Of a stretch of DNA of 64,000 bases, positions 2,503-55,043 are shown piece by piece (position 1 is the stretch's first letter; every line of letters starts with the position of its first letter). A program made the translations under genes and the position numbers. The stretch spans positions 9,902-73,901 of the forward strand of contig JBFYPG010000187.1 of NCBI GenBank assembly GCA_041303415.1. Direction: 5' to 3'. A model generated the notes under the pieces. That model was not told the DNA's origin. It searched no databases and saw only the letters and a program-made list of their open reading frames with translations. The stretch is from Bacteroidales bacterium (GTDB taxonomy: Bacteria; Bacteroidota; Bacteroidia; Bacteroidales; VadinHA17).

Positions 2503-5500
2503 TTATATCCTTATTCCCAGGATGATAATGTCGTCGATCTGTCCTATATGTTCACAATCGCGGGAGGGATAATTGATCCATTCATCAAGGATTTTTTCAA
2601 AGGCTTCTTTCTGACTGCTCATATCCAGGCTCTGGTTTTCGAGGAGCATTTTGGTGAACCTTGGTTTCATGAATTTCCTGCCGTCAGGTCCTCCGAACTG
2701 ATCGCAAAAGCCGTCGGAGAAGAGGTAAATTGTATCTCCTTTTCTTATTTCTGTTTCATTCATGGTGAAATCACTCATTCTTGAATAGACCCCGACAGGC
2801 ATAACATCAGCTCTTTTTTCAAGCAATTCATACACGTTGTCAACTTTCCTTATAAGCACCATCGGATTATTTGCACCTGCAAACTGAAGCAGGTTCTTCT
2901 TTAAGTCTATTGAGCATAATGCCATATCCATTCCATCCTTGCTGGTTTCATAGTCACCTTTCTGTTTCAGCGAAAGGATCACATTCTCACGAAGCTCATT
3001 CAATACCCTGTCGGCCTGGACTATCCCGTTTTCATTCACTATCTTATTCAGAAAACTTACTCCCAGCATGCTCATGAATGCTCCCGGAACACCGTGACCT
3101 GTACAATCTGCTGCAGTAAATATGACATGATCGCCTTTTTTTGACATCCAGTAAAAGTCGCCGCTTACAATGTCTTTCGGACGGAAGAGTATGAAATAGT
3201 CGCTGAAGTGGTTTTTAAGAATAGACTCATCCGGAAGGACTGCTTTCTGGATCGTCTTGGCGTATTGTATGCTGTCAGTTATCTCCTTCTTCTGATAGGT
3301 AACGATATCTCTCTGCCTGGCAATCTCATCCTTCTGTTCAACCACCTCCCGTGTGCGTTCTTCAACTATTTTTTCCAGCTTGACTTTTTCATCGATGAGC
3401 TTTTTCTCACGGTATCTGATGAATAGTATAATTGCTGAAGCGGCTGACAGGACAGACAATACAATGAACCATTTTGTCCTCCAGAAGGGAGGCTTGATAA
3501 TGAATAAATACTGTACGGGATCACCGGTCACCCCGAATTTATTTTTTGCCCTAACATAAAAGGTGTAATTGCCCGGACGAAGGTCTGAAGATGTCACGCT
3601 TCGTGAAGAAATGTAAGGCGACCATTCCCCGGACCCATTCCTTTCAAGTCGGTAGGAGAATGTAATATCACCTGGATTACTGAAGGAGAGTCCTGTAAAA
3701 TCGAAGGTTACATGATTATCCTTATGTGACAGTTGAAGGTTTTCCGGCAGGTCATACCACTTGCCTGTTGAAATATTTCTTGAATTCCAGTCCACTTCCT
3801 CAAAAAACAGTTTGACAGAGGTAATATGTGTTTTCGGCTGAACTGCAAGGTTCTCACTTATTGAGGGATTGAACCGTATCATTCCGTTCTTTGTCCCGAA
3901 CCAGATCATGCCGTCTTTATCCCTGGCTACTGAATTTGTGTTATTCTCCCCCCCGGTGAATCCGTCGCTGTTACCGTATGGGGTTACCTTTGCAACAGAC
4001 AGGTCTTCATTAAGTTCGATAAGATCAAACCCTTTATCCGTGCCAGCGATTAAGCTATGATTGCCGATGAACAGGAGTGAGTTCACTGTCCCGGAGGAGA
4101 GGAGACCTTTTGTTGCCAGCAATGATATGGGGAGAGAGTCTGCGTCAATATCAAACCTGTAAATACCCCCGCCGAATGTGCCGATCCAGATATTGCCGGC
4201 GGGATCTTCAGCAAGCGCATTTATCCTCAGGAAATCAAGGCCGTCTTCTTCATCAAAATCAGTATATATCTTATTTTCAAGCTTTACCAGCCCGCCGAAT
4301 GTTCCAATCCATATCCTCCCTCCTGAATCTTCGATTATAGTCTGAATTTCGTTATGAATCAGACCGTCATCTTCGCTCATTGTTCCGATCCTGTCTGCGG
4401 AGAATTCTGCATAACCTCCGCTGGTGCCTGCCCATAGTTTGTCGTCGCTTCCCGCCAGCAGGGTATTCACCTTGCTGTTGGGCAACCTGTAGTTATATTC
4501 GAATTCTGAAACGATTTTGCCATTAAAGACATTGATGCCATTGTTTGTACCTATATGTATATTTCCATGATACCTGGCTATGCATGTTGCCCCGGCATCA
4601 TTGAGTCCCTGAGCCAGTGAGTAGTGTTTCAGTTTTTGTATTTTATCGCCCGATTTTCTGAACGATGTAAATCCCTCCTCTGTGGCAGTATAGAGTGTCT
4701 CATCAGGGTCAAAAAAGATGCTGAGGACCTGGTTTCCGGTTACACCTTCAGCGGCACCGTAGGAAAGGAATTTTTCGTTGCTGTACATAATAGCACCCTG
4801 ACCGTATGAGGCGAGCCAGGTATTTTCCTCATTATCCTCCATGATGCCAAGTATTTGATTTGAAGGCAGTCCGTTATTCCTGTTGAATTCACCAGTAACT
4901 TTATCTTCCCTTAGCCTGATAATTCCGTTTTTGTCGGTTGCAAGCCAGGTTTCACCGTTCTTTCCGTCCAGGATATCCCACACTATGAGTCCGCGGAAAG
5001 AGCTATTTACTGAAGATTCCACTATTTCAAATTCAGCACCGTCTTCACCGGGAATTGCTTTAAAAAGTCCGTCACCGAGACTTCCAAGCCAGAACGTACC
5101 GTTATCACCCGGTTCAACTGAGAGAATGATGTCGGTTGGGATGATTGGGTCTTCAATACTCTCTATTTCAAGGGTGTCTGACCCTGAAAAGGTTAGGATA
5201 TTAACGCCTCCGACCATTGCAAGCCAGAGACGTTTTGCAGGATCCTCATATATATCAAAAATGAAGTTGCTGATTAGACCGTCGTCAATGGTGAAGTCTT
5301 TTATTTTGAGAGAATCGCCTGGCTGAATGGCAATAAGCCCGTTGCTGTTTGTTCCGATCCAGATTATGCCATTACTCCCTTCAGTTATTTTCATGACTGA
5401 TGTCCCTGACAATCTCTGCCTTTCAGTGAAAACAGAGAATTTCTGACCGTCATATAGTGTGAGGCCGGTAAATGTGCCTATCCAGAGATTGCCGCGGCTG

Positions 5501-5763
5501 TCCTCGCAGAGAGAGCGGATAACATTATCAGAAAGGCCGTCAGCTTTGGTGAAAGTTTCGAACCTCGTCCCATCGAAGCGGACAAGTCCGCCGCCATCGG
5601 TCCCCATCCAGATGAATCCCCTGCTATCCTGCAGAAGACAATAGACTGTCGATTGCGGAAGACCTTCCTCAACCGAATACTTTCTGAAAAAATACTGCTG
5701 TGCTTCAGCTTCTGAAAAACAGAGGCACAGCAAACATATCAATGTCAGGATTCTTTTCAGCAT
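2503..5763 (-). CDS. Transmembrane sensor phosphatase: signal peptide, two-component-regulator propeller repeats, Y_Y_Y domain, TM helix, coiled coil and a SpoIIE/PP2C phosphatase domain
   Basis: 1,086 aa. The N-terminal half has repeated G-L-x-x-N-x-I-x-x-I-x-E-D-x-x-G-x-(I/L)-W-I-G-T units (Reg_prop-like). ITFSYRLERNGSGEWSPY...GNYTFYVRAKN is Y_Y_Y-like. The TM helix is WFIVLSVLSAASAIILFI, followed by a Lys/Glu-rich coiled coil. The C-terminus SGDFYWMSKKGDHVIFTAADCTGHGVPGAFMSMLG...LFSDGFCDQFGG is SpoIIE/PP2C-like. The start codon lies 5 nt downstream of the caspase-gene stop. Confidence 0.85.
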   Translation of the reverse strand: MLKRILTLICLLCLCFSEAEAQQYFFRKYSVEEGLPQSTVYCLLQDSRGFIWMGTDGGGLVRFDGTRFETFTKADGLSDNVIRSLCEDSRGNLWIGTFTGLTLYDGQKFSVFTERQRLSGTSVMKITEGSNGIIWIGTNSNGLIAIQPGDSLKIKDFTIDDGLISNFIFDIYEDPAKRLWLAMVGGVNILTFSGSDTLEIESIEDPIIPTDIILSVEPGDNGTFWLGSLGDGLFKAIPGEDGAEFEIVESSVNSSFRGLIVWDILDGKNGETWLATDKNGIIRLREDKVTGEFNRNNGLPSNQILGIMEDNEENTWLASYGQGAIMYSNEKFLSYGAAEGVTGNQVLSIFFDPDETLYTATEEGFTSFRKSGDKIQKLKHYSLAQGLNDAGATCIARYHGNIHIGTNNGINVFNGKIVSEFEYNYRLPNSKVNTLLAGSDDKLWAGTSGGYAEFSADRIGTMSEDDGLIHNEIQTIIEDSGGRIWIGTFGGLVKLENKIYTDFDEEDGLDFLRINALAEDPAGNIWIGTFGGGIYRFDIDADSLPISLLATKGLLSSGTVNSLLFIGNHSLIAGTDKGFDLIELNEDLSVAKVTPYGNSDGFTGGENNTNSVARDKDGMIWFGTKNGMIRFNPSISENLAVQPKTHITSVKLFFEEVDWNSRNISTGKWYDLPENLQLSHKDNHVTFDFTGLSFSNPGDITFSYRLERNGSGEWSPYISSRSVTSSDLRPGNYTFYVRAKNKFGVTGDPVQYLFIIKPPFWRTKWFIVLSVLSAASAIILFIRYREKKLIDEKVKLEKIVEERTREVVEQKDEIARQRDIVTYQKKEITDSIQYAKTIQKAVLPDESILKNHFSDYFILFRPKDIVSGDFYWMSKKGDHVIFTAADCTGHGVPGAFMSMLGVSFLNKIVNENGIVQADRVLNELRENVILSLKQKGDYETSKDGMDMALCSIDLKKNLLQFAGANNPMVLIRKVDNVYELLEKRADVMPVGVYSRMSDFTMNETEIRKGDTIYLFSDGFCDQFGGPDGRKFMKPRFTKMLLENQSLDMSSQKEAFEKILDEWINYPSRDCEHIGQIDDIIILGIRI

Positions 5764-5768
5764 CCTTC

Positions 5769-7601
5769 CTATTTGAGCATAAAAATGAACTGGCCTCCTG
5801 CGTCACCGGCATTCCTGATGGGGCTGTAGAGAGGTGTCTGGTATGAATTATTCACAACAGGTATCTTCAGCGATTCAAAGACCTGACCGGCATCAAGATA
5901 TTTTTCCGAGTTATTTGTAAGTGCCTGCAGGAAATAGTATGCAAATACCGAATGCCCCTCCTTGCCTTTGTCCATAACAGGTTCCACGCCTCCGGAAGTA
6001 AGGGCTTTCCTGCTGTTCAGGGAATATACCTTCTGATAGTATTTGGTTGAATTCTCATAAGGGATGGTCATTGTTTTCCCCCTGAAAATATCGCCGCTGA
6101 AGCAGGCATCAGTGACAAGAAGAGTGTGTTTCGAATTTATTCCCGAGAGGAACGACCTGATATCCTCATTGGAGATATATTTTGAAATGGTTTTCGATGC
6201 GGCATCGATGGGCACCCAGAATCCCTTATCCATATTCTGCAGGTACTCGCCATGCCCCGAGTAATAAATAAAGACGTTGTCGTTAACCTTCACATTCTGC
6301 ATCAGCCATTCAAACTCCTTAAGGATATTGTCACGCGTAGCATCCTTGTTATAAAGGGCTTTCAGATAATGGAACGTATATTTTGAGGAGAGGGTTGTCG
6401 CAACGCTTTTTGCATCATTGACGGCATTCTGGAGCTGGGGCCATTCTCCCGAATACTGATCTATTCCTATAATAAGCGCGTAATACTCTCCTACCTGTAC
6501 CGACTTCATCGCCTGGGCAACGTTGAGTCCCTTGAGCGGATCATTCCCTCCCCGGAATTCGCTGAAGTTCTGTGCCAGCGACTTATCGATCTCCTTCCTG
6601 ACAGGCTTATCGACTTCGACTGACAGATCGAGATCATTTACATTTGTAATGTCGGCGCCGGTAATTTCAAATTTTACAGGGATTACAGAGTCGGCGTAAT
6701 TTTTTGTAGCGAAGAACTGAAGTGTCAGCAGCTGTTCTTCACCAGCTTTAAGGGATTGAACTTTTTTGAAATCGACCACCTCAACATTATCCGGCACCCT
6801 GTAGCTGATCTGCAGGTCGGAGGCATCCTTGTTTCCCACGTTGGTCACATTTACGGTAAGTGTCACCGCTTTGCCCACTGCGACCTTATCATTAGTTGTA
6901 ATGAATTTGTAATCCATTATCAGAACCTTTGATTTTTCAGCTTCAGTCTCATCGAGGTATGCGATATCAATATGATCGATCATGATGGTCGAATTGTCGC
7001 CTACCTGGAAGCCCAGGAGGTTTCCGAAGAAAGGCTCAAAGGGCATTGAGTGCACCAGTTTTTCGTTAAGGAAGAAATAGTATTTATCTGCCACTTTCCG
7101 CACCGTAAGTTTGTTGAAAGCGTACCTGTTGACATCATCTGAAATTGTGAACGGAACATAATCCCGGAATTGCCCGTCATATTTGTCGATGGTGAAATGA
7201 CCGCCCCCGGTAAGCAGGAAGTCATATTGACGGACAGGGTTGACTGATTTACCCCATTGGAGTCCATAACCTTTATCCATCATTCCCTCCACGAAACGGA
7301 TTGAAGTCTCGATCTCAAAATCGCGTTTCTGATCGATGATGGCAGGCAGCAGGTCTTCCTTTGACTTGTTTGTCAGTGACTGGAAGACCAGTTTGCCGTC
7401 CTCGATGCTTTCTGACCAGCTGTTTTCCTCTATCCCGAGCAGCCAGTAGTTGCTGAATTTGCTGAAGTCGTCCTGCAGGATGTACTGTTTCTTGAGCTCT
7501 CTGCTAAAGCTGTAATATGCAGGCGTGGCCTTCTCCTGGGCATAAATCACAGCGGCTGACAGGAAGAGGGAGACTGCACATAAGATTTTTCTTGGTGACA
7601 T
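5769..7601 (-). CDS. Exported caspase-family (peptidase C14, orthocaspase-like) protein with N-terminal lectin/LamG-like and CARDB/Ig-like regions
   Basis: 610 aa. The signal peptide is MSPRKILCAVSLFLSAAVIYAQ. The C-terminal ~240 aa read YYALIIGIDQY...AVNDA...VFIYYSGHGEY (His codon at 6252-6254) and HTLLVTDACFSGDIF (Cys codon at 6102-6104), giving a caspase His/Cys dyad in canonical order. The middle segment VGKAVTLTVNVTNVGNKDASDLQISYRVPDN is CARDB-like. Confidence 0.8.
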   Translation of the reverse strand: MSPRKILCAVSLFLSAAVIYAQEKATPAYYSFSRELKKQYILQDDFSKFSNYWLLGIEENSWSESIEDGKLVFQSLTNKSKEDLLPAIIDQKRDFEIETSIRFVEGMMDKGYGLQWGKSVNPVRQYDFLLTGGGHFTIDKYDGQFRDYVPFTISDDVNRYAFNKLTVRKVADKYYFFLNEKLVHSMPFEPFFGNLLGFQVGDNSTIMIDHIDIAYLDETEAEKSKVLIMDYKFITTNDKVAVGKAVTLTVNVTNVGNKDASDLQISYRVPDNVEVVDFKKVQSLKAGEEQLLTLQFFATKNYADSVIPVKFEITGADITNVNDLDLSVEVDKPVRKEIDKSLAQNFSEFRGGNDPLKGLNVAQAMKSVQVGEYYALIIGIDQYSGEWPQLQNAVNDAKSVATTLSSKYTFHYLKALYNKDATRDNILKEFEWLMQNVKVNDNVFIYYSGHGEYLQNMDKGFWVPIDAASKTISKYISNEDIRSFLSGINSKHTLLVTDACFSGDIFRGKTMTIPYENSTKYYQKVYSLNSRKALTSGGVEPVMDKGKEGHSVFAYYFLQALTNNSEKYLDAGQVFESLKIPVVNNSYQTPLYSPIRNAGDAGGQFIFMLK

Positions 7602-7874
7602 GACTTTTATATTAAAACTAATTCAATATTCAAGATTCAAAATTCAAGATTCAAAATTTCAGGTTGCTTGTACCTGTAGAATTCAGCAAAAAAAGAGCCA
7701 AAGAATAAAAGTACTAATTTTAAAGGACATATGTAATAAAATAGGGTGAATTTCCATTGCTGGCAATGGTTCGTTCATGACCTGAAAGGGTGTGCTCGTC
7801 AAAAAATGGACGCTGTTCTTGGAAAAACTGCGAATTCTCCGTAAATTTTAAAGTTTTTTTCTACAACCTGTCCT
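7602..7874. promoter_or_regulatory. Divergent intergenic region that must contain the promoters of the caspase/sensor operon (-) and the giant gene (+)
   Basis: A 273-bp AT-rich spacer lies between divergent start codons at 7601 (-) and 7875 (+). It contains a 7-bp-periodic tract ATTCAAN x about 6 at 7621-7662. TA-rich/TTTT words sit 20-35 nt upstream of 7875 (TAAATTTTA at about 7842-7850) and are only near-matches to the Bacteroidetes TAnnTTTG -7 box. The exact promoters are not resolved. Confidence 0.45.
7621..7662. repeat. Heptad tandem tract ATTCAA[T/G/A] x about 6 (equivalently a 14-mer TTCAAGATTCAAAA x 2 at 7629-7656)
   Basis: Read directly: ATTCAAT ATTCAAG ATTCAAA ATTCAAG ATTCAAA ATTTCAG. 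It begins 20 nt upstream of the caspase-gene start codon. Confidence 0.8.
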
Positions 7875-10800
7875 ATGAGAGTACCCTCTTTGAAAAGGCT
7901 TGTACTGGTCACAGCCTTCTCAGCAACAGTTTTCAGCCTGTTCTCGCAGACCTTCGTTGAACAGACAGGAATATCCCTGCCGGGCATACAGCGGGGCACT
8001 GTGGCATGGTGCGACTACGACAGGGATGGTGATCTTGACATCCTGATATCCGGAGATAATCTTACCAGCATATACAGGAATGGAGGAAGCAATACTTTCA
8101 CTGAACAAACTTCAATAACCCTTGAAGGGGTATGGCAGGGTTCAGCGGCATGGGGCGACTTCAACAATGACGGTTACCCCGATATCCTGGTGACAGGCTA
8201 CAGTTCGTCAGGCGCCATTTCAAAAGTCTACCGCAACAACGGCAACAATACCTTCACCGGGCAGACAAGCATAATCCTCAAGGGGGTAGGCGACAGCTCA
8301 GTTGATTGGGGAGATTATGATGGTGACGGAGATTTGGATATTTTACTGACTGGAGACGGATATTCAAGAATATACAGCAATAACAGCGATAATACTTTTA
8401 CCTGGCAAACAGGGATCAGCCTGCGAAGTATTAGCAGCGGCTCAGCAGCCTGGGGCGATTATGACAGGGATGGTGATCTTGATATTTTATTGACCGGTTG
8501 GGATAATTCAAGAATATACCGGAATAATGGTAATAATACTTTTTCAGAACAAACCAGCATCAGCTTTATAGGAATTTCTTGTAGTTCAGTGGACTGGGGC
8601 GACTATGATAACGATGGCTATCTGGATATTTTATTGACAGGAAGCGACAATCCCGGGACTCCATTGTCCAAAATCTACCGCAACAATGGAGATAACAGCT
8701 TCTCAGAACAAACCGGTATTGGACTAACAGGAGTAAACAATGGCTCTGCGACCTGGGGCGATTATGACAATGATGGTTTACCGGACATATTATTAACAGG
8801 TAATAGTTCCGGTGGTCCGGTTTCCAAAGTATACAGGAATAACGGCAACAACACTTTTTCTGAGCTGACAGGAATAACTATTCCCGGTGTCGATTATAGT
8901 TGTGCAGTCTGGGGCGATTATAACAATGACGGAAAGCTTGATATCCTTATGGCGGGAGATACACACAGCGGCAATGTGACTAAAGTGTACCAGAACGCCA
9001 CATCAACGGCCAACAGCGCACCGGCGACGCCAACAGGACTAAACGGAGCCGCAGGCACTTCATCAGTTACATTTAACTGGAATACCGTTACAGGCGATGC
9101 AACTCCATCCGGAGGTATGAGCTACAATTTACGCATAGGTACAGCCCCCGGTGGGACAGATGTTATATCTCCCTTATCGCTTGCTTCAGGGTCAAGGCTG
9201 TTGCCCGAAACCGGCAACACCGGATTAAGTGTAAATTTTACACTTAAAAATCCGAAGAAAGCAACATTTTACTGGAGCGTTCAGGCTGTTGATAACGGGT
9301 TCAAGGCCGGTGCATTTGCTTCTGAACAGCTGGTGACTTTTTCTTCTTCTATCCAGGCTTCTTATGTATTTGCCGACAGTATCAGGGAATCGTCAATTCA
9401 GCTTAACTGGATACGGGGGAATGGCACAGCCTGTGCTGTCTTTGCAAAAAAGGACAACAGCGGTACGGCATCTCCTTCAAATGGAACCTTGTACACTGCA
9501 AACAGTGTTTTTGGCAATGGTCAGCAGATAGGATCAACCGGATGGTATTGCATTTATAACGGGACAGGATCCACTGTTAAAGTGACCGGACTGGCACCTG
9601 TTACCGAATATATCTTCCAGGTTTTTGAATACGAGGCAGGGCCTTCATATTATTCGCAAACAGGAGAGTCGAATCCCGCAGTGATCCAGACAAATGGATT
9701 TGAGGAGCAGGCCGGTATTGCGCTTCAGGGAGTTAATAACGGCTCTGCCGAATGGTTTGATTATGACAGGGACGAAGACCTGGATATCATCCTTGCAGGT
9801 GACGGTATGACAAAGATCTACAGGAATGATGGCAGCAATGTATTTAATGAACAGGTTGGAATAATACCGGAAACCATAAGCAACGGTTCGGTTTCGACCG
9901 GAGATTATAACAACGATGGTTTCCCTGATATTCTTATGTCAGGGGATGGTCCCGGTGTTACGAAAATTTACAGGAACAATGGCGGCATCTCATTCACTTT
10001 TCAGTCGGGTATTATTCTGCCCGCAATAAGCAACGGATCTGCCGAATGGGGTGACTATGACAATGACGGTGATCTGGATATTGTTATTGCCGGCAACGGT
10101 TTTATCAGGATATACCGCAATAACCATGATAACACGTTTTCGTGGCAGTCTGAAATAGAACTTCCGGGTACTGCTGAAAGCTCCACAGAATGGGGCGACT
10201 CTGATAACGACGGTGATCTGGACCTGCTTGTGACAGGTTGGAACACCACACGGGTTTACAGGAATAATGGAGATAATACCTTCACTGAAATAACAGGCCA
10301 GCCATTTCATGGGGTTTCATGGGGCTCAACATCATGGGGCGATTATGATAATGACGGATGGATCGATATACTGCTTACCGGAAACGGAGCTGCAAGGGTT
10401 TACCGTAACAATCATGATAACACATATTCATATCAGTCATCGATTATTCTGGCAGATACCTGGAACAGTTCCGGTGCATGGGGCGATTTTGACAACGATG
10501 GCTATTCTGATATACTATTAACCGGATGCTGTCCGGCAGGATCGGTTTCCAGCGTTTTCAGGAATAACGGGAATAATACATTTTCTGAACAGAAGGGCAT
10601 TATTCTTACCAGTATATGCAATGGAACGGCCGTCTGGGGTGATTATAACAGTGATGGCAGACTGGATATACTTTTATCGGGAGGTTCCCCAACCGGAAAT
10701 ATAACAAAGGTATATTCCAATTCACTCTTGAGTTCCAACGCTGTTCCGCCGGCACCATCAGGTTTGTCATCGGTTGTAAATGAAACCTCAGTTTTGCTTC

Positions 10801-13800
10801 AGTGGAATGATGTAACGGGAGATGCCACCCCGGTTAACAGTATGAGTTATAATATCCGTATCGGAACTTCACCGGGCGGCAGTGAGATTAAATCGCCTCT
10901 TTCACTCTCATCCGGCAGAAGGCTGATATCAGCAAATGGCAATGCACAATTGAATAACCAGTTCATCCTGAGAAACCTGCCGAAAGGGACTTTCTACTGG
11001 AGCGTTCAGGCTGTTGACAATGGATTTTCAGGCGGGCCGTTTGCTGCCGAGCAATCTTTTACATGGTCCGTATCAAATCCGGCTTCAGGTATAATAGCCG
11101 ACAGCATTAAAACATCATCGCTGATACTTAACTGGACCCGGGGAAACGGATCAGCATGTGCAGTGTTTGCAAAGAAAGAAAACAGCGGATCAGCCTCACC
11201 TGTCAATGGAACTGCTTATACTGGTGATCCTGTTTTTGGAAATGGCACCCAAATCGAAACAAGCGGATGGTACTGTATTTATAACGGAACAGGATCATCT
11301 GTGAAAGTCACGGGGCTTGATATATTGTCATATTACATTTTCCATGTGATAGAATATGAGGCCGGACCTTCTTATTATTCTGCTGTGGGAGAAAATAACC
11401 CTGCAGTTTTACAGACAAACGCATTTACCCTGAGATCTGATTTCACTTTCCCGAACCTTAATCACGGTTCACCTGAATGGTGCGACTATGACAGGGATGG
11501 TGATCTGGATGTGCTTCTCGCCGGTGACGGATGGTCAAAGATATATCGCAACGAAGGCGGAACTGATTTTATTGAACAGACGGGAATAGTACTCGTCGGG
11601 GTCAGCAACTGCGCCATGGCATGGGAAGATTATGATCTGGACGGTTATCCTGACATCCTGATAACCGGTGATGGACCATCCGGCCAGATTTCAAAAATTT
11701 ACAGGAACAATCAGGACAGCACTTTTTCAGAACAGGCAGGTATTGTATTGCAGGGCGTGCGAAGCAGCTCTGTTGCCTGGGGCGATTATGACAATGACGG
11801 GGACCCGGACATACTGCTTACAGGAAGCGGGTTCTCACAGATTTACAGCAATAACGGCAATAACACTTTTACATGGCAGAACGGAATAAACCTTCAGAGT
11901 ATTGATGACGGCTCGGCAGCGTGGGGCGATTATGATCGTGATGGAGATCTTGATATAGTGCTTACCGGATGGGGGAATTCAAAAATTTACAGGAATAACG
12001 GGAATAACTCATTTACTGATCAAACCACTATTTTCCTCCAGGGAGTTCACAACAGTTCGGCTGTATGGGGCGATTATAATAATGACGGCTATCCTGATAT
12101 CCTGCTGACAGGATGGGACAATATAAAGCAAATATCAAAGATATATCGTAACAATGGTGACAATACATTCACTGACCAGGCATCGATTATAATGAAAGGC
12201 ATTCAGGGAGGTGCAGCAGCCTGGGGTGACTTTGATAATGACGGATTTATTGATATCCTTCTTTCCGGCTGGAGCTCTTCGGGTAATACAACAAAAGTAT
12301 ACAGAAACAATGGAGACAATACATTCACTGAACAGACCGGAATAGAACTTCCGCAGGTATCAAACGGTTCAGTATCATGGGGCGACTTCAATAATGACGG
12401 CAGGCTTGACATATTTCTGACAGGTGCAGGGGATGGGTATAATTTATCTGCAATTTTTCAGAATAACCTGCCACAATCCAATACTGCTCCTTCAGCGCCA
12501 TCAGGGCTCTCTTCAACAACTGATGAATCATCAATAACTTTTAACTGGAGCGGCGTTACAGGTGATGCCACACCTCCGGACGGAATGAGTTATAATGTCA
12601 GAGTGGGAACAACACCCGGCGGCAGCGATGTGGTCTCTCCCGTTTCGCTGGCATCGGGAACACGTCTGATCCCGGTATATGGCAATGCCAGGTCAAATTA
12701 CAAATTTGTCCTGAAAAATCCTGAAAAGGCAACTTATTACTGGAGCGTACAGGCAATCGATAATGGTTTCCTGGCCGGTGCTTTTGCTGCTGAACAGTCT
12801 GTAACATTCTCATCTCCTCTCCAGGCTTCGATGTTGTTCACTGACAGTATCATGCCGTCGTCGTTAAAACTTAACTGGACCCGGGGTAACGGAACAGCCT
12901 GCGTTGTATTTGCAAAAAAAGCAAACACAGGCACTGCAGCACCGGCAGATGGCACATCATATACCGCCAATAGTGTGTTTGGCAGCGGTTCTCAGATACT
13001 CACAAGCGGATGGTACTGTGTTTACAACGGGTCAGGGACGAACGTGAAAATCACGGGACTGGAACCGTTAACATATTATATTTTCCAGGTAATCGAATAT
13101 GATTCGGGCCCTGTCTATACTACAATAACAGGTCAGAATAATCCTGTTGTACAGCAGACAAACGCATTCACAGAGATAACAGGGCTGACAATCCCGGGGG
13201 TTAATAACAATTCAGCAGCATGGTGCGACTATGACAGGGACGGCGACCTTGACCTGCTGACTGCAGGTGACGGAATTACAAAGATTTACAGGAATGAGGG
13301 CAGCGATACTTTCAATGAACAGAGCAGCATAGTTCTGACCGGAGTATCTAACAGTGGTCTGGCCTGGGGTGACTATAATAATGACGGTTATCCCGATATA
13401 CTGCTGACAGGCGATGGCCCCTCGGGACCTGTTTCAAAAGTTTACCGCAATAACGGGAACAATTCTTTTACCGAACAGACAGGAATTACGCTTATGGGAG
13501 TAAGCAACAGCTCCGTGGCATGGGGCGACTTCAATAATGACGGGCTGTCAGATATACTTTTATCGGGACATAATAATACCGGAAACGGTATTACAAGGAT
13601 ATACCGGAACAATGGTGATAACACATTTACCTGGCAGGAGAGCATAGTACTGACAGGAGTCTCGGAAAGTTCGGTTTCGTGGGGCGACATTGATAATAAC
13701 GGATTTTCCGATATTCTCGTCAGAGGCTGGGGCGGCACAAGGCTATACCGCAACAACGGCGATAATACTTTCACAGAACTGTCAACTACAAACTGGAAAG

Positions 13801-16800
13801 GAGCAAGCTGGGGATCATCATCGTGGGGAGACTATGATAACGATGGCTGGCTCGATCTTCTGCTTACCGGTGACGGGTATACCTATGTCTATTCAAATAA
13901 CCGTAATGGATCTTTTTCAGAGGTGACAAATGTGGTTCTTGACCAGGTATGGCAGGGATCAGGAAGCTGGGGCGATTTTGACAACGACGGGTATGCTGAC
14001 ATACTCCTTAGCGGTTATACATCAACCACCAGTATAACTAAAGTGTACAGGAATAATGGTGATAAAACATTTACATATCAGCCGGGGATCGCCCTCACAG
14101 GTATCGGAAACGGCAACGCAATCTGGGGTGACTATAACAATGACGCGAAACTTGATATATTCCTTATTGGTAACAACGCCAACGGCAATACTGCCAGACT
14201 GTTTAAAGGGGGGATGCCAACTTCAAATTCCTCACCATCAGCACCTTCCGGGTTATCCGCAACTGCAAACGAGGAATCCATAATCTTCAGATGGAACAGG
14301 GTGGCCGGTGACGCTACTCCCGCGAAGGCAATGAGCTATAATGTGAGGCTGGGGACAACGCCGGGCGGAAGCGAAATAGTATCTCCGATGTCGCTGCCGG
14401 CAGGCAAAAGGCTGGCGCCTGATCCCGGAAATGCATTTGCCGATACCCTTTTTATATATAAGAATCCCCCGAAAGCGACTTATTACTGGAGCGTGCAGGC
14501 GATAGATAACGGGCTGTCAGCAGGTCCGTTTGCATCTGAACAATCCATTACATATTCCTATTCCGCCCAGGCATCGCATGTTTCTGCCGACAGTATCAGG
14601 GCTCTCGACATGGTTATAAGATGGGTCAGGGGAAATGGCAGCGGCTGTGCAGTGTTTGCAAAGCAAGGAAGCAGCGGCACAGCTTTGCCGCTTAACGGAA
14701 CTTCCTATGCTGCCGATCCGGAATTCGGCAACGGATCACAGATCGGCACAAGCGGATGGTACTGTGTATACAACGGGACAGGCACAAATGTAAGAGTGAC
14801 AGGGCTTGAGCCTGCTACGACATATATTTTCAGTGTTGTTGAATATGAGCCAGGCCTGGCTTATTATACATCAACAGGAGCTGACAATCCGGGTATTATC
14901 AGGACTCACCTTTTTGCCGAACAGTCCGGAATAACCCTGCCCGGTATAGGGAACCGTTCATCCGTTTCATGGTGCGATTATGACAGGGACGGAAATCTTG
15001 ATATCCTGCTCACGGGAGATGGAATTTCAAAGATCTACCGGAACGAAGGCAGCGGGTCCTTCATCGAACAGACAGAAATAATCCTTGAGGGTGTGTGGGG
15101 AGCAGCCTCGGCCTGGGGCGACTATGATTGTGACGGATATCCTGACCTTCTGATAACTGGCTGGATAAGTGCAGGTTATAATGCTTCCCGGATTTACCGT
15201 AATAACGGTAACAATACTTTTACATGGCAATCTTCAATCGCACTTATAGGTGTGGGAAACGGAGCAGTAGCCTGGGGCGACTATGATAACGACGGCGATC
15301 CTGATATTATTCTTACAGGCAGCAGATATTCAAAAATTTACAGAAACAACGGGGATAATACTTTTACTGAACTTACCGGAATCTCACTTTATGGAGTGGA
15401 AGTAAGTTCGGTGGAGTGGGGAGATTATGATCTGGACGGCGACCTTGATATTCTGCTTTCAGGACAGACTTCAAGTAACGGAATGACAAAGCTATTCCGG
15501 AATAACGGTGATAATACCTTTACCGAGCAAAACGGAATTGAATTTAACAGAACAACCGATGGTTCTGCTGCCTGGGGTGATTATAACAATGACAGTTATC
15601 CCGATGTCCTGGTAGCAGGCTGGGGGAACTCTTATCTATACAAAAATAATGGAAATAATACTTTCACATGGCAAAGTAATATTGTGACAGAGGGAATCCA
15701 TCAATGCACTGTGAACTGGGCCGACTATGACAATGACGGCTTACTTGATGTTCTGCTGACAGGAAATGATAATAATAATAACCTGATATCAAAAGTATTC
15801 AGGAATACCGGCAGCAATAGTTTCACTGAGCAAATTGATATAGTTCTCAGGGGTGTCAACCGTGGAAGTGCGGCCTGGGGTGATTACGACAATGACGGGA
15901 AGATTGATATACTCCTTACAGGCAATACAACTTCCGGGAACATAACACGGATTTACAAAAACTATACTGCTTCAGCAAATGCAGCGCCTCCTGCTCCGGC
16001 CGGATTATCTGCAGTTGTCAATGAATCATCCCTTGTATTCAGGTGGAACAGGGTTTCAGGCGATGCCACTCCTGCAAAAGGGATGACATACAATATCCGT
16101 ATCGGAACGGTTCCGGGCGGCAGCGATGTTGTTCCTCCGATGTCCTTATCATCAGGATCACGCCTTATTCCATGGGTTGGAAATACAGGGAGTGATACAT
16201 TGTTCATACTTCGCTATCCTGAAAAGGCAACTTATTACTGGAGTGTTCAGGCTATTGATAACGGTTTGAAAGCAGGCGCTTTTGCCTCAGAGCTGTCAAT
16301 TGCGTACTCTTCACGGATCCAGGCTTCCCAGGTTGCGGCCGTGAATGTTGAGGCAAACATTCTCAGGCTCGAATGGAGAAGGGGAAACGGATCAGCCTCC
16401 GCTGTATTTGCTAAGAAAGGAACTACAGGAACAGCACTTCCTGCTGACGGAACAACCTACAGCGCTGACCAGGTATTCGGCAGCGGCAACCAGATAGGAA
16501 CATCGGGCTGGTATTGTGTTTACAACGGCACATCATCAGGAGTGAATATTTCCGGGCTGGAACCACTTACAAATTATATCTTCCATGTAATAGAGTATGA
16601 TCCGGGTCCATCGTACTATACTCAGACCGGTCAGGCAAATCCGGCTCTGATTATGACAAACGTATTTTCCAGGCAAACCGGTATTTCACTGCAGGGCGTC
16701 TCGGGCAGTTCGGTTGCATGGGGTGATTATGACGGTGACGGTGATCCTGATATACTTCTTACCGGCTATAAATTAAATAACGAAAGAATCTCCAGGATAT

Positions 16801-19800
16801 ACCGCAATGACGGAAGCAATACGTTTACTGAACAAACAGGTGTTTATCTTCAGGGTGTGCAGAATGGCTCGGCTGAATGGTGTGACTATGATAATGACGG
16901 GGATCTCGATATTCTGATTTCAGGTGAAGGGATATCAAAAATTTACCGTAACAATGGCGCCGGTTCATTCTCTGAACAATCAGGTATTGTTTTCCCCGGA
17001 ATGAATCAATCTTCAGTTGCCTGGGGAGATTATGACAATGACGGTTTTCAGGACATTCTTCTTACTGGTCACAATTCAAACTGGATTACCATTTCAAAGA
17101 TCTATCGTAATAACGGCAATAATTCATTTACCGAACAATCGGGCATAACTCTGCCTCCCATGGGCAATAGTACAGTTGCTTGGGGCGATTATGACAATGA
17201 CGGATACCGGGATATCCTGCTGGGTGCCTATAAGATCTATCATAACAACAGCGATAACAGCTTTTCTGAACTGACCGGTGTCGATCTCTATGGATTGAAT
17301 GAATCTTCAGTATCGTGGGCAGACTACAATAACGACGGATTCCTCGATATATTTATCACCGGCTCCTCAAATGCAGAGTCGTTTGCAAAACTTTACAGGA
17401 ATAACGGTAACAGCACTTTTACAGAAGAATCAGGGTTAAATATTAAAGGGATTTACCAGGGATCAGCAACCTGGGGAGATTTTGACAATGACGGCAATAC
17501 CGACCTTCTGTTAACCGGGGGAGGTCTGGTAAAAATTTACCGTAACCAGGGTAATAATACTTTTGCGGAGTATCCCGATCTCCTGCAGGCCGGACTTCAG
17601 AACTCTTCTGCTGCATGGGGTGATTACGACAATGACGGCAGACTCGATATCCTGCTGTCAGGCCAATCGGGGAGCGGATATATTACAGCAATCTACAAAA
17701 ACGTTGCAGGGTCAGTCAACACCGCACCTGAAGCTCCCATTGAACTTTCATCATCAATCGATGAAACATCGATAGTATTCAAATGGAACCGGACCACCGG
17801 AGATATCACTCCCGGGAAGGGAATGAGTTATAATGTAAGAGCCGGGACTAATTCCGGAGCAGTTAATACGATCTCTCCGATGTCCCTGTCATCCGGAGCC
17901 CGTCTTATCCCGGCCATGGGTAACGCCTTTTCCGACACTCTTCTGGTTCTCAGGAATCCTAAGAAAGCTAATTATTATTGGAGTGTGCAGGCAGTCGACA
18001 ACGGATACAAAGCAGGAATGTTTGCAGCCGAGCAGTCGGTAACTTATGCTCTCTCGGTGCAGGCATCTAATGTTTTTGCCGACAGTATTAAGACCACGGC
18101 CCTGAAACTGTACTGGACAAGAGGAAACGGATCCGCATGTGCAGTATTTGCCAAAAAGAGCGACAGCGGAACAGCATCACCTGTCAATGGTACTGTTTAT
18201 AATGCTGATCCGGTCTTTGGCAGCGGATCACAGATTGGCTCAAGCGGATGGTACTGTGTTTACAATGGCATTAAGAATTATGTTGTTGTTACAGGTATTG
18301 AAGCTGCTGTTGGTTATATATTTCATGTAATAGAATATGAAGCAGGTCCTTCATATTACACTCAGACAGGACAGTCGAATCCCTTTATGCTTCAGCCATC
18401 CATTCTTTCCGAACAGAGCAGCATTTCTCTCGCGAATTTGGGGAACGGCGCTTCTGTTGCCTGGGGCGACTATGACAATGACAATGACCTGGACATACTT
18501 ATTACAGGCGATAATCAATCACTTATTTACAGGAACGACGGAAGTAATATCTTCACCCAGCAGAACGGGATCACTCTTCAGGGTATTTGGCAGGGTTCTG
18601 TTGCCTGGGGCGATTATGACAATGACGGTGACCTTGATATTCTTTTATCAGGAGCAATTAATACCGGTTCTGTATCCAAAGTATACAGGAACAACGGCAA
18701 TAATTCATTTACTGATCAGACTGATATAATATTGACAGGTTTGTCGAGCTGTTCGGCAGCCTGGGTCGATTTCAATAAAGACGGTCGTCTGGATATTTCA
18801 CTGGCAGGTAATGGTAATTCGGGTTCCGTGACCAGCCTTTATCGCAATGACGGGAATAACCTGTTTACCGGACTGGCGGGATTTGGAATTCCGGGATTAA
18901 GCAGCAGCTCAATTGCATGGGGAGATTACGATAACGATGGTTATCCTGATGCTTTAGTATCGGGAAACAGTCCTGAGGGAACAATTTCGAGGATCTATCG
19001 CAATAATGGCAACTCGACTTTTACATGGCAGGAAGGTATCAGCCTTTCAGGGATAAATGATGGTGCAGTAGCATGGGGTGATTATAATAACGATGGCTTG
19101 CAGGATATTCTGATATCCGGGAACGGAATATCCAAGCTCTACCGTAACAATGGCAATAACACCTTTTCGGAGCAGACAGGAATACAACTGGAGGGTCTCA
19201 GTAGTTCATCGGCTGCCTGGGGTGATTATGATAATGACGGCTACGCTGACCTTATTCTCACAGGATGGACGAACACCAGTAAAGCTGTCTCAATACTCTA
19301 TCACAATGATGGGAACAACACTTTCTCCGAAAAGACTGATGTTTATCTTACCGATGCGAATGATGGTTCGGCGGCATGGGGTGATTATAACAACGATGGC
19401 AGGCTTGACCTTTTACTTTCAGGAACGGATGAATACGGTGCACGGTTTACCCGGATATTCCGAAACTACGCTCCCATAGCCAATGTTCCACCTGCTGCAC
19501 CTGCAGATGTTTCAGTTACGGGCACCAGTACCTCACTGATCCTTCACTGGGAAGGTGTTGAAGGCGATGCCACCCCTGCCGGAAGCATGAATTATAATGT
19601 CAGAATTGGTACTTCCCCGGGCGGCTCCGATATTGTCTCTCCTATGTCGCTCCACACCGGATCGCGGCTTTTACCGAAACATGGCAATGCATGGTCTGAT
19701 ACTCTTTTCATCCTGAATACTCCGGCAAAAGCAACATATTATCTGAGTGTTCAGGCAATCGATAACGGATTTGCCGCCGGTCCTTTTTCAACCGAACAAA

Positions 19801-22800
19801 CTTATTCCTACTCCCAGTCAATACAGGCTTCACTTGTAATTGCCGATTCTGTCCAGGCAACTACATTGAAGCTTCTCTGGACGCGAGGTAACGGAACGGC
19901 TTGTGCCGTATTCGCCCGTAAAGCTGAAAGCGGAACCGCTTCACCCGCCGATGGAACAACATATACTGCAAATCCTCTCTTCGGATCAGGTTCCCAGATT
20001 GGAACGACAGGATGGTACTGTGTCTATGGCGGCACTGACAATCATGTAAAGATAACCGGCCTTGAGCCTCTCACGACCTATGTTTTCCATGTAATTGAGT
20101 ATGAACCAGGACCTTCCTGGTACACTCAGTCAGGCCAGGGAAATCCATTGGTAGTTCAGACCAGCCTTTTCAGCGAAATTAAGAATTCCGGGTTACGGGG
20201 TATCAGCTCGGGTTCTGCTGCATGGGGCGATTATAATAATGACGGAGACCTGGATGTCCTGCTGACCGGTTATGATCTTTCAGGCAGAATAACGCGATTA
20301 TACAGGAATAACGGGGACAGCACTTTCACCGGGCAGTCTGATATTATCTTCCCTCAGCTATCAGAAAGCTCTGCAGCCTGGGGTGATTATGACAACGACA
20401 ACGATCTCGACCTCATTTTAACAGGTTCCTCGGACGAAAGGCTGATCTCACAGGTTTACAGAAATGATGGCAGCAACACTTTTACCGGACAGACAGAAAT
20501 TTCACTTACTCCGGTAAACCAGAGTTCCGTTGCATGGGGTGACTACGATAATGATGGCTGGCTCGATATCCTGCTGAGCGGTGATAACGGCAATGGTCAG
20601 ATCACAAAGATTTACAGAAACTATGGCAATGGAACATTCGTTAATCAGCCATCAATAATGCTTCCGGGATTGAGCGGAGGTTCAGTTGAATTTGGAGATT
20701 ATGACAATGACGCGGACCTTGACATCCTGATTTCAGGGAACAATTATAACAGGATCTACCGGAATAATGGCGATAATAGTTATTCGGAGCTCAGCGAAGT
20801 ATATTTAAGAGGAGTCTCGGGCGGTGAAGCAATATGGGGTGATTATGATAACGACCGAGACCTTGACATATTGGTGACCGGTAACGGAAGTACAGTGATA
20901 TACCGCAATAACGGAAATAATATTTTCGAGGAGCAGACTGGTATTGCCCTCGAAGGAATTCATGGGGCATCTGCTGCCTGGGCTGACTATGATAATGACG
21001 GCAATATCGATATCCTTCTTGCCGGTTATGATAACACATGGATCCCGGTTTCAAAGGTGTACAGGAATAATGGCAGTAACAGCTTTACAGAGCAGACAGG
21101 CATCAGGCTGGAAGGTGCAGGGAACAGTACTGTTGCCTGGGGAGATCAGAATAATGACAATAAGCTGGATATATTGCTTGCCGGCAGCAACAGGAACTCC
21201 AACATCATCAGGTTATACAGCAATAACATTCTTTCATCCAATATACTTCCGCCGGCTCCCTCAGGATTAACTGCAGCCGCCACCGAGTCATCCATCATAC
21301 TGAAATGGAACAGGATAACGGGAGATGAAACTCCGTCAGGCGGAATGATGTACAATGTTCGTATCGGTACTGCTCCCGGGAAAGGCGATGTTGTCACTCC
21401 CATGGCACTCAGTTCAGGACGGAGGCTTCTTCCCGGGAGGGGTAATGCACAGTCAGATACGGCGTTCATACTTAAGAATCCGCAGAAATTAACCTATTAC
21501 TTCAGTGTTCAGGCAATTGACAATGGTTATTCTGCCGGCCCCTTTGCTGCCGAACAGACTATTACTTATACTTATTCGCTGCAGGCTTCCCGGATAGTGA
21601 CCGGAGAAGTCCAGGGATCGAAGCTTGAGCTTGTATGGACAAGGGGTAATGGCGCCGGTTGCGCAGTTTTTGCCAGAAAAGGAACCGGCAGTACAGCTGC
21701 TCCTGCTGATGGAGCTGTATACACAGCAGACGAGTATTTCGGCAGCGGCACACAGATAGGCACCAGCGGGTGGTTCTGTGTTTACAACGGTACAGGGAGC
21801 GAGGCTGATGTCAGTGGGCTTGAAGGGCTGTCTCAATATACCTTCCATGTGATTGAATATGATGCAGGCCTGAAATATGACACAAGATCAGCCCAGAATA
21901 ATCCGCTTATGGTACAGACCGGCTTGTTTGACAAACAAACCGGGATCACAATTCCGGGATTATCCGGAAGCAGTATGGCATGGGGCGATTATGACAACGA
22001 CGGTGATCCTGACCTGCTGATAACCGGATCATCTTCAACAGAGAATATATCCAGGATCTACCGTAATGAAGGAGGCAATTCATTCACGGAACAGACAGGA
22101 ATAAGCCTGCAGGGAATAAGAAGAGGATCTCCTGCGTGGGGAGATTATGACAACGACAACGATCTGGATATCCTGCTTACTGGCAGCGGGTATTCAAAGG
22201 TTTACACGAACAATGGAGATAATACTTTTACTGAACAGACTGATATTGCCCTGATTCCGGTTCAGAACAGTTCATCTGCCTGGGGAGATTATAATAATGA
22301 CGGGTATATGGATATCCTTATTACTGGGAACTCTGCAGGCGGCAATGTTTCAAAGGTCTACCGGAATAATGGCAATAATACCTTTACGGAACAAACCGGT
22401 ATCCTCCTGCAGGGAGTATCTCTTGGATCAGCTTGCTGGGGTGATTATGACAATGATCACGATCTCGATATCCTGCTTACCGGATCCACAACAGACAATG
22501 TATCCGGAGCGATTGTCAGGATATACAGGAACAACGGTGATAACACCTTTACGGAACAGACGGACATTTCTATTTATGGCGTCTTTGAAAACTCGGCAGC
22601 CTGGAGCGATTATGATAACGACGGCGACCTTGATATTACAATAAGCGGTCAATCTTCAATAGGATTTATTTCAAGGATCTACCGGAATAACGGCGACTAT
22701 ACATTCAGCTATCAGGCATCGATCTCACTTCCGGGTTTGTGGCAGGGCGCCATAACATGGGGCGATTTTGACAACGACGGCGATCCTGACCTGATACTGG

Positions 22801-35162: not shown

Positions 35163-35601
35163 AGGTGCTTGTTGCTGGTTGCTTGTTGCTGGTTCCCTTT
35201 GAATTTTGAGTCTACTCCGAAAAGTTTTTTTACCACCAAGGCTCCAAGGCACAAAGTTACTCCAAGAATAAGTCATTGAAAGATAAACTCTTGGTGAACC
35301 TTGGTGTCTTTGTGTCTTCGTGGCAATTTTATTATTTGGATTTATCTGGAATTTGGAATCTGAAATCAAACAACCACGGAGACACAGAGTGCACGGAGAT
35401 ACACAGAGTCGCCTCTTCCCGCCCTCTCGCCCTCCATTGTCCGCCGAAGTCCCGAGTACTCGGGACGAAGGCGGATCCCCATCTCCCCATCCTTCTTCTT
35501 CGTCCCAACTTTCTCTGCTTTAGTCAAATAAGTCGGGGTTCATTTGCTTTTAACAGGGATTTTGAGTAATTTTTCTATTTATTTTGTTAAACCTGATTGA
35601 G
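35163..35601. repeat. Repeat-rich spacer between the two giant paralogues
   Basis: There is a tandem 14-mer GCTTGTTGCTGGTT x 2 (35167-35194, heptad-periodic TTGCTNG). The words CACCAAGG/CCTTGGTG and CACAAAG/CTTTGTG occur on both strands (35232-35323). There is a tandem CACGGAGA(C/T)ACACAGAGT x 2 (about 35384-35420). The stem CCGCC-GAA-GTCCCGAG-TA-CTCGGGAC-GAA-GGCGG (about 35441-35474) has a perfect 8-bp palindromic core. Confidence 0.7.
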
Positions 35602-42771: not shown

Positions 42772-42781
42772 CCCTTATTAC

Positions 42782-44707: not shown

Positions 44708-44733
44708 TATAGCAGGTAAACAAACGATAATTT

Positions 44734-48527: not shown

Positions 48528-48547
48528 GATATTCCAGGATTTGATTT

Positions 48548-49167: not shown

Positions 49168-49269
49168 GTTGGCAGTTGGCAGTTGGCAGTTGGCAGTCGG
49201 CAGTCGGCAGGCGGCAAATATTTTTGTTGCCAACTGCCAACTGTATACTGCCAACTTTCTGTTGCCAGC
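49168..49269. repeat. Inverted heptamer array: (GTTGGCA)4 (GTCGGCA)2 GGCGGCA, a 10-nt AT loop, then TGCCAAC units
   Basis: Left arm, 49168-49216: seven contiguous 7-mers. Loop: AATATTTTTG. Right arm: TGCCAAC at 49228, 49235 and 49249, then TGCCAGC at 49263. TGCCAAC is the reverse complement of GTTGGCA. The element lies 50 nt downstream of the EEP gene stop (49319, minus strand) and upstream of the 48548-49048 gene. Confidence 0.85.
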
Positions 49270-54956: not shown

Positions 54957-55043
54957 GTTGGCAGCAGGCAGTAGGCAGTGGGCAAAAAGTAAAAGGATAA
55001 TTGCCAACTGACATTTGCCAACTGCCAACTGCCAACTGCCAAC
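54957..55043. repeat. Second copy of the inverted heptamer array: GTTGGCA GCAGGCA GTAGGCA GTGGGCA, a 16-nt A-rich loop, then TGCCAAC x5 (one degenerate)
   Basis: Left arm: 54957-54984. Loop: AAAAGTAAAAGGATAA. Right arm: TGCCAAC at 55002, 55016, 55023, 55030 and 55037. It lies between convergent stops at 54922 (+) and 55078 (-). Confidence 0.85.

Follow-up and report, generated by a model that had tools for sequence, protein, structure and literature searches.

A protease gene and a receptor gene lying side by side in a 64,000-nucleotide stretch of DNA from a Bacteroidales bacterium of the VadinHA17 lineage (assembly GCA_041303415.1, contig JBFYPG010000187.1, positions 9,902 to 73,901; this whole stretch is called the window below) may encode two parts of one signalling module. 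In the reading favoured here, to which a probability of about one half is given, a predicted periplasmic orthocaspase is the cognate partner of a phosphatase receptor that joins an ectodomain like those of hybrid two-component systems (HTCS) to a SiaA-type output domain, and the receptor controls an adhesin locus in the clade carrying the pair. The caspase gene (5769..7601, minus strand, 610 amino acids (aa)) is followed on the same strand by the sensor phosphatase gene (2503..5763, minus strand, 1086 aa), a 5-nt spacer (5764..5768, minus strand; TAG-GAAGG-ATG) lying between the stop codon of the one and the start codon of the other. On its other side, the caspase gene faces a divergently transcribed gene across a 273-bp intergenic region (7602..7874), this neighbour (7875..35162, plus strand, 9095 aa) encoding a giant type IX secretion system (T9SS) cargo protein, as found by the open reading frame (ORF) list and domain scan. 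The two minus-strand ORFs, the 5-nt spacer, and the shared divergent region of 273 bp had all been described in an original prediction made from the sequence, and the ORF coordinates bear them out. A scan of the spacer finds no terminator-like site, and the two genes are probably co-transcribed.

The protein encoded by the first gene had been taken for an exported caspase-like protease, with which both the Pfam C14 match and the signal peptide agree, its export now being refined to the Sec/signal peptidase I (SPI) route into the periplasm. Along the chain, a signal peptide (residues 1-21; 7539..7601, minus strand, as for all parts of the two proteins given here) is followed by a ConA-like lectin or carbohydrate-binding module (CBM)-like domain of beta-jelly-roll fold (residues ~22-222; 6936..7538), a CARDB / DUF11 immunoglobulin (Ig)-like domain (residues 234-322; 6636..6902), a linker, and a Peptidase_C14 domain (residues 374-610; 5772..6482), the CARDB and protease domains being placed by Pfam and alignment. 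The Pfam model PF00656 matches residues 374-583 (E 2.8e-21, 76.7 bits against a cut-off of 21.4), and CARDB matches (E 1.9e-06) in what is the most variable segment of the protein in the orthologue alignment. The catalytic residues, His450 in an SGHG motif (6252-6254) and Cys500 in a DACFSG motif (6102-6104), are unchanged across 44 orthologues, and the two motifs align with the metacaspase SGHG and DSCHSG. Asp498, two residues ahead of the catalytic Cys, forms the D-x-C motif of metacaspase type. An Asp of this type goes with cleavage after basic P1 residues (Arg/Lys), and the protein is therefore predicted to cut after Arg or Lys. Residues ~22-222, for which Pfam offers no match, were assigned from an AlphaFold2 model and Foldseek, with pLDDT values mostly of 63-90 that fall at the N-terminal edge of the domain; the best PDB matches are the CBM66 structure 4B1M (E 2e-08, TM-score 0.61), the DUF1080-type protein BT3469 (4JQT), and the lectin of Emp47p, making the fold ConA-like lectin / CBM66 / DUF1080-like. 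The model is reliable for the N-terminal and CARDB domains only. The caspase domain belongs to a very large subfamily and is 55-64% identical to many of the clusters listed, which have WD40, ankyrin, Ig-like or other domains at their N-termini. Membership among the EACC1-associated caspases was rejected, the NCBIfam model (NF047832, caspase_w_EACC1) scoring 59 bits (E 4.5e-16) against a cut-off of 140.

For the sensor, Pfam and hydropathy agree with the make-up originally claimed, a Reg_prop/Y_Y_Y region, one transmembrane helix, and a SpoIIE/PP2C domain. The predicted periplasmic ectodomain (residues ~22-749; 3517..5700) comprises a Reg_prop double propeller (E 4.9e-50) and a Y_Y_Y domain (E 2.6e-08), and is followed by a single transmembrane helix (residues ~762-784; 3412..3480; hydropathy peak 2.19 at residues 763-785), which is the only internal one besides an N-terminal signal-like segment and in which W765 and F766 are invariant in the sensor alignment. 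The cytoplasmic part (2506..3411), delimited by its PDB and NCBIfam matches and its motifs, consists of a helical linker (785-876) and the PP2C domain (877-1086), where SpoIIE (PF07228) matches at residues 877-1085 (E 7e-19, 68.9 bits against a cut-off of 25). The ectodomain matches PDB 4A2L, the periplasmic domain of the HTCS BT4663, at E 8.4e-59, and also 3V9F and 3VA6, and its Reg_prop and Y_Y_Y composition is that of an HTCS-type periplasmic domain. Membership of the HTCS themselves was rejected, since Pfam finds no HisKA, HATPase_c, receiver or AraC-type domain and the cytoplasmic part is a PP2C. With a PP2C in place of the HisKA-HATPase-REC-AraC series, the sensor therefore lacks DNA binding and autophosphorylation and must signal via separate proteins.

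Linker and PP2C together match PDB 6K4E, the SiaA-PP2C of Pseudomonas aeruginosa, over 275 residues (E 4.7e-36), and the charged linker, which had been called a coiled coil, aligns with the SiaA helix in front of the PP2C domain. All the metal-site residues of SiaA, as given in PMC7647112, are kept by the sensor in the motifs GDFYW, DCTGHG, SDGF and DD, and the PP2C motifs are invariant among 15 diverse sensors. The NCBIfam SiaA model matches the sensor C-terminus at E 6.4e-50; the match to this equivalog (NF038263) reaches 170 bits against a cut-off of 700 and covers model positions 385-656 only, and full SiaA membership was rejected. Assignment to PorZ (NF052228) was likewise rejected at 93 bits (E 1.3e-26) against a cut-off of 260, the propeller repeats alone matching.

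Both proteins carry SPI-type signals that obey the Bacteroidetes Q-rule for signal-peptidase-I substrates (PMC5837995). The caspase cleavage site, read from the sequence, lies between VIYA and QEK, which exposes Gln22 and conforms to that rule, and A21 and Q22 are invariant in the orthologue alignment. Pfam and NCBIfam scans and reading of the sequence find neither a lipobox nor a T9SS C-terminal domain in the caspase protein, so that its mature form is predicted to be periplasmic, and the same approach finds no lipobox or T9SS C-terminal sorting domain (Por_Secre_tail or CHU_C) in the sensor. With Sec/SPI signals only, both proteins are therefore predicted to face the periplasm and not the cell surface. 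This makes direct action at the surface unlikely for what had been proposed as a surface-sensing and processing module, and of the suggestion that the protease acts on the fibre, only action on a fibre in transit is left.

The pairing of the two genes was followed across a clade by a caspase-anchored scan that took one genome per species and yielded 30 loci, all from uncultured Bacteroidales-type metagenome-assembled genomes (MAGs), for which locus tables were drawn up from tblastn and gene-spacing measurement. Full-length caspase homologues among the best 120 database matches are 75-100% identical and form a single 50%-identity cluster. In each of the 29 species-level loci long enough to show it, the caspase gene is followed by a sensor gene on its own strand, at a distance of 3-232 nt, or of 536-772 nt in eight loci with an inserted gene. 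The two genes are thus a real, conserved, and co-oriented pair across the loci surveyed, and the proposed operon and link to surface fibres, which had rested on one adjacency, are plausible and now backed by conservation. Within each genome, the caspase is far more conserved than the sensor (78% against 57%, for example). The inserted gene, on the same strand in L003-L006, L015, L016, L024 and L028, encodes a 136-aa PDDEXK_3 (GxxExxY-type) protein; these proteins are strongly alike one another, and the insert resembles a small, mobile or selfish gene tolerated by the caspase–sensor pair.

Wherever a locus includes 1.2 kb or more upstream of the caspase gene (26 loci), a giant surface-protein gene is found there in divergent orientation, and FG-GAP matches occur in 25 of these 26 upstream regions, the exception (L030) having a 1641-aa fn3/Fib_succ_major gene and then the contig end. 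Which gene directly adjoins the caspase gene varies, however, between a giant FG-GAP, a PKD_6/VWA, and an fn3/Fib_succ_major gene, so that the specific giant gene of the window is not the conserved partner. What is retained is the FG-GAP/PKD gene with its C-terminal sorting domain, together with the outer membrane protein (OMP) gene and the genes for the 209-aa and 285-aa proteins where the contig reaches them, and in L009, L019, L023 and L036 the orthologues of the adhesin cluster stand in the same order. The convergent ABC-2 exporter on the other flank is present in most loci but absent or replaced in L007, L023, L034, L035 and L038 and displaced in L017. Because some giant surface-protein gene is kept upstream while the downstream exporter changes, the divergent layout is the more stable of the two flanks, and it persists at identities as low as 58% for the caspase and 43% for the sensor.

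Outside this clade, a sensor-anchored scan of metagenomes gave 80 loci with sensors 27-74% identical to that of the window. Among the 625 other genes of these loci, eight encode a caspase domain, and all eight stand on the sensor's strand directly or nearly directly before it, seven at position -1 and one at -2, with none elsewhere (Fisher p = 5e-07, uncorrected for relatedness). Orthologues of the window caspase account for two of the eight (L040, L041). Another, in L055, encodes a 486-aa C14 protein and has, as in the window, a spacer of 5 nt to the sensor gene, while in L045 a C14 protein of 445 aa is encoded ahead of a 276-aa ORF. The remaining four encode tetratricopeptide repeat (TPR) proteins of ~795 aa where complete, the contig ending within the L056 copy; at only ~25% identity to that of the window caspase, their C-terminal domain keeps the His and Cys. 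The sensors of these diverged pairs are 30–40% identical to the window's.

A second sensor clade, set apart in a rough neighbour-joining tree, has its own upstream partner, an exported protein of ~330 aa encoded at -1 of the sensor gene in L076, L084, L087, L090, L093, L094, L097, L101 and L102. This protein has no Pfam match, no PDB sequence match, and no similarity to the caspase, and hhalign, at a probability of 0.8%, rejects it as a caspase relative. What defines sensor subfamilies thus appears to be an exported partner of their own, encoded upstream, a caspase in one and the 330-aa protein in another. The gene order in the second clade runs from a CHU_C (type-B) cargo through PorP/SprF and a PD40/PKD protein to the 330-aa protein and the sensor: the 330-aa gene follows PorP/SprF and PD40/PKD genes in L093, L094, L097, L101 and L102, with a CHU_C cargo preceding in four of these, whose T9SS signal domain is confirmed by Pfam. 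Giant genes also come after the sensor genes of L049 (1775 aa) and L052 (2640 aa), and reading by eye alone finds T9SS sorting motifs at the C-termini of their products, of type A and type B respectively. Linkage of the sensor family to giant T9SS surface proteins, judged from these gene orders, recurs without being universal; together with the clade-wide divergent layout it keeps the proposed link between the sensor and a surface fibre plausible.

Relatives of the sensor also point to the proteins through which it may signal. A SiaB-like gene (DUF6272) and a SiaC-like gene (PF09345, DUF1987) directly adjoin the sensor gene in L052, L096, L101 and L117 and lie within 6 kb of it in L065, the SiaB-like protein matching the SiaB-SiaC complex 6KKO_A (E 1.9e-16) and the SiaC-like protein 6K4F (E 6e-13). 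Given a SiaA-like PP2C and these genes in cis in relatives, the expected substrate of the sensor family is a SiaC-type phosphoprotein and not a classical RsbV. The earlier expectation that the PP2C acts on a phospho-STAS partner is accordingly not upheld, the cis partners of relatives being a SiaB kinase and a SiaC phosphoprotein and not RsbV/RsbW. In L052 (8924-21271), the SiaB-like gene, the SiaC-like gene, the sensor gene, and the 2640-aa gene with its type-B T9SS motif (by eye) follow one another, and L101 (1-11329) holds a CHU_C cargo, PorP/SprF, a PD40/PKD-family protein, the 330-aa protein, the sensor, and the SiaB-like and SiaC-like proteins in this order; these two loci are the best candidates for experimental work on the sensor family. 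In the 64-kb window itself, scans of all plausible ORFs and of the intergenic gaps find no genes for STAS, RsbW, SiaB or SiaC proteins, sigma factors or protein kinases, and dedicated searches of the window for SiaB and SiaC also return nothing, in line with the original statement that partner-switching, sigma-factor and kinase genes are missing from it. MutL in the window carries the HATPase_c fold but is a mismatch-repair protein.

From these elements we infer a ligand, a substrate, and an output for the module. The caspase and sensor genes would form a co-transcribed signalling pair facing the periplasm, in which the caspase, as the periplasmic partner of the receptor, would bind a protein or glycoprotein via its lectin and Ig domains and cleave a substrate. 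The propeller ectodomain would read the cleavage product or a protease–substrate complex, and this readout would switch the PP2C so as to dephosphorylate a SiaC-type (DUF1987) phosphoprotein, opposed by a SiaB-type kinase, with both SiaB and SiaC presumably encoded elsewhere in the genome in this clade. The released SiaC-like protein may then alter an effector, the likely target in this clade being the production or display of the divergent T9SS FG-GAP adhesin cluster, a control of adhesion or aggregation comparable with that by SiaABCD in Pseudomonas. A stronger form of the reading is tentative and clearly the less probable of the two, namely that the caspase is an obligatory proteolytic co-receptor whose cleavage event is signalled across the inner membrane to a SiaB/SiaC switch governing T9SS adhesins, and that its varied N-terminal domains (lectin-like, TPR, and others) choose what is sampled.

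Several points weigh against the favoured reading. The loci surveyed come from uncultured MAGs or metagenome contigs only, and the association counts and Fisher p are drawn from loci that are not phylogenetically independent. SiaB, SiaC, STAS, and RsbW genes are found neither in the window, nor in the 10 kb leftward of it, nor in the loci of the orthologous clade, SiaB and SiaC genes being absent from L001-L041 and L120. The physical or functional coupling of the protease to the ectodomain is something we infer, and the AlphaFold2 model of the caspase domain, with pLDDT mostly <50, is poor, so that no structural claim is made on the caspase active site. The grouping of caspase-paired sensors in the rough neighbour-joining tree speaks for the reading, but that tree carries no support values, and the sensors of L008 and L042 fall inside the caspase-paired clade without a caspase gene, showing that the sensor can exist alone. 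Finally, no FG-GAP or T9SS cargo gene is found near the pairs in L045, L055, L056, L059, L100 and L112, and from these gene neighbourhoods the pair is read as a free-standing module with a lineage-specific FG-GAP link. The expected synteny with FG-GAP giants therefore stands for 25 of the 26 loci of the orthologous clade and fails for the diverged pairs, whose occurrence apart from propeller genes is an outcome that the original prediction had itself named as refuting, and adhesin control is clade-specific wiring at best.

The same diverged pairs lend themselves to a different account, in which the pair is a periplasmic nutrient or envelope sensor, an enzyme with an HTCS arranged much as in a polysaccharide utilisation locus, and the adjacency of adhesin genes is inherited gene order. 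Their neighbours are RibD, DnaE, MatE, U32 peptidase and SusC/SusD genes with no adhesin near, the ectodomain is of HTCS type, the giant gene next to the caspase varies, and the locus encodes no DNA-binding output. Against this stand the persistence of the divergent adhesin layout in 26 of 26 loci, down to 58%/43% identity and while the other flank was replaced in several, and the linkage of at least three other sensor subfamilies to giant T9SS cargo; this account is a serious competitor, held to be about half as probable as control of the adhesin locus by a caspase-partnered receptor.

It is rather unlikely that the caspase trims, matures, or clears FG-GAP cargo in the periplasm before T9SS export and that the sensor reports the load, an account near to the original suggestion for the protease but shifted from the surface into the periplasm. 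Such a role would suit the linkage of T9SS cargo to the pair throughout the clade, the presence of lectin and Ig domains, which could bind glycosylated cargo, and the periplasm as a compartment common to all, but caspase–sensor pairs exist without T9SS cargo nearby, sensors in an operon with type-B cargo use the caspase-unrelated 330-aa partner, and the caspase is conserved (58-92% identical) next to cargo that is highly variable. Less probable again is cleavage of the sensor ectodomain, or of an inhibitor bound to it, by the caspase, which would switch the PP2C irreversibly. The tight and ancient linkage, the partner-specific sensor clades, and the 5-nt spacers of the window and L055 would fit such an intimate relation; no conserved cleavage site was identified, though, there is no precedent among HTCS ectodomains, and irreversible activation is ill-suited to a reversible kinase–phosphatase switch. 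A cell-death or conflict effector like the cytoplasmic EACC1/NACHT-associated caspases, triggered by the sensor, is very improbable, for the weak caspase_w_EACC1 match (E 4.5e-16) and the presence of EAD11 in some distant relatives of the caspase domain are outweighed by a score (59) far under the cut-off (140), by the absence of an NTPase or, in Pfam, of any effector-associated domain, by the export of the protease with an invariant Q-rule signal, and by the separation of the periplasmic protease from the sensor output domain in the cytoplasm.

If the stronger form of the reading holds and the caspase is an obligatory co-receptor of the phosphatase receptor, an exported bacterial caspase would for the first time have a role in signalling, and a new class of protease-coupled receptor would be defined in Bacteroidota. 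Bacteroidota have many exported caspases, none of them with a known function, and the pairing offers them a concrete and testable role. The Reg_prop/Y_Y_Y-PP2C proteins, many of which are present in databases, are an uncharacterised receptor family that these results place in SiaA/SiaB/SiaC-type signalling, and the arrangement suggests a way in which Bacteroidota of the environment might control aggregation and their very large surface adhesins. We know of no experimental study of Reg_prop/Y_Y_Y-PP2C proteins. The component families are already known, and the caspase–phosphatase receptor pairing is undescribed in the searchable literature: full-text searches return nothing on Reg_prop/Y_Y_Y-PP2C receptors or on such a pairing, and searches for T9SS with caspase or FG-GAP and for partner switching in Bacteroidetes return nothing on a caspase–sensor pair. 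A 2012 survey (PMC3501461) analyses the operon neighbours of metacaspases, and its main text does not contain the word 'phosphatase'.

The adhesin cluster of the window begins with the giant gene, whose product combines about 91 FG-GAP_3 repeats with fn3 and PKD domains and ends in a sorting domain of type A. The rest of its conserved part (35584..46220, plus strand) comprises a second FG-GAP/PKD gene (35584-42771, 2395 aa), also with a type-A C-terminal domain, so that a T9SS sorting domain is present in both FG-GAP genes, and genes for a 641-aa OMP of beta-barrel type and for exported proteins of 209 aa and 285 aa. Over its last ~2000 residues, the giant is about as similar to orthologues of the second FG-GAP gene as that gene itself is (in L019, 48% for the giant and 46% for the second gene), which suggests, from these alignments, that the giant gene was born by tandem duplication followed by repeat expansion. 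The 209-aa exported protein (44734-45363) is the best-conserved product of the cluster, 72-81% identical across loci against only 45-61% for the adjoining OMP, and matches no family. Two other proteins, a fibre-like one of 713 aa with a Peptidase_S74 chaperone domain and one of 166 aa with a type-A T9SS C-terminal domain, stay together as a cassette; it lies at 46386-49048 of the window (minus strand), at 15395-18042 in L017, between the sensor gene and the ABC exporter, and at 10976-12985 in L034, directly after the sensor gene, and from these differing positions it follows that the cassette moves within the locus.

On the other flank, the sensor gene and the convergent ABC-2 permease gene meet stop codon to stop codon (2502/2503, 0 nt apart), and a scan finds no terminator-like site between the two; most related loci show a tail-to-tail distance of no more than a few tens of nt or a 4-nt overlap of the ORFs. 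A further 10 kb leftward hold the remainder of the ABC exporter, a TetR gene, a methylmalonyl-CoA mutase gene, and two small unrelated ORFs. There are no Rfam matches across 2300-8200, a scan for sigma-70 promoters and terminators gives sites no more numerous than in shuffled sequence, and the regions upstream of 30 orthologous caspase genes yield neither a conserved operator nor a definable site common to both divergent genes, only frequent TAnnTTTG-like boxes, which were seen by eye and often lie 20-30 nt upstream of the caspase start. A heptamer array, (TTGAATn)x5.6, at 7620-7658, 19-57 nt upstream of the caspase start codon, is missing from orthologous loci, and other orthologous upstream regions have GC-rich repeats of CAGGC type. 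Elsewhere in the window, arrays of the heptad GGCAGTT stand in two intergenic regions (49171-49238 and 54967-55040) in opposite orientations, with 10 matches against 0.23 expected, and may be hairpin-formers or a REP-like element.

Among known systems, the Bacteroides HTCS (4A2L/BT4663, 3V9F, 3VA6) share with the sensor the Reg_prop propellers and Y_Y_Y domain followed by a transmembrane helix, and the sensor ectodomain presumably binds a periplasmic ligand as theirs do; the output, in contrast, is a PP2C and not HisKA-HATPase-REC-AraC. RsbU-type sensors, of which Chlamydia RsbU is an example as a transmembrane PP2C sensor driving partner switching, likewise combine an extracytoplasmic sensor, a transmembrane helix, and a PP2C acting on a small phosphoprotein. 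They differ from the present receptor in the sensor domain itself, in their RsbV/RsbW partners, where relatives of the receptor indicate SiaB/SiaC, and in having no protease gene paired with them.

With the orthocaspases and metacaspases (Yca1 4F6O, 7QP0, TbMCA2 4AF8; surveyed in PMC3501461 and PMC6426788), the caspase shares the C14 fold, the SGHG and D-x-C-x-S-G motifs, and a variable N-terminus, and is set apart from them by its predicted export to the periplasm, the order lectin-like domain, CARDB, C14, and its fixed pairing with a phosphatase receptor. The PorU/PorZ attachment complex of the T9SS also brings together a clan-CD cysteine protease and a protein with two Reg_prop propellers, with T9SS cargo alongside, but in the window T9SS C-terminal domains are lacking from the pair, the propeller protein is an inner-membrane PP2C receptor, and the protease is of the C14 family and not gingipain-like; the likeness is a resemblance only. 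SiaABCD, finally, controls aggregation and biofilm formation in P. aeruginosa (PMC7647112). The sensor is distinguished from SiaA by its N-terminus, an HTCS-type double propeller and Y_Y_Y domain with no NCBIfam match before residue 795, by the absence of siaB, siaC, and siaD in cis, by the caspase gene upstream, and by its Bacteroidales host, and shares with it the membrane anchorage of the PP2C, the preceding helical linker, the metal-site residues, and, in relatives of the sensor, adjoining SiaB-like and SiaC-like genes.

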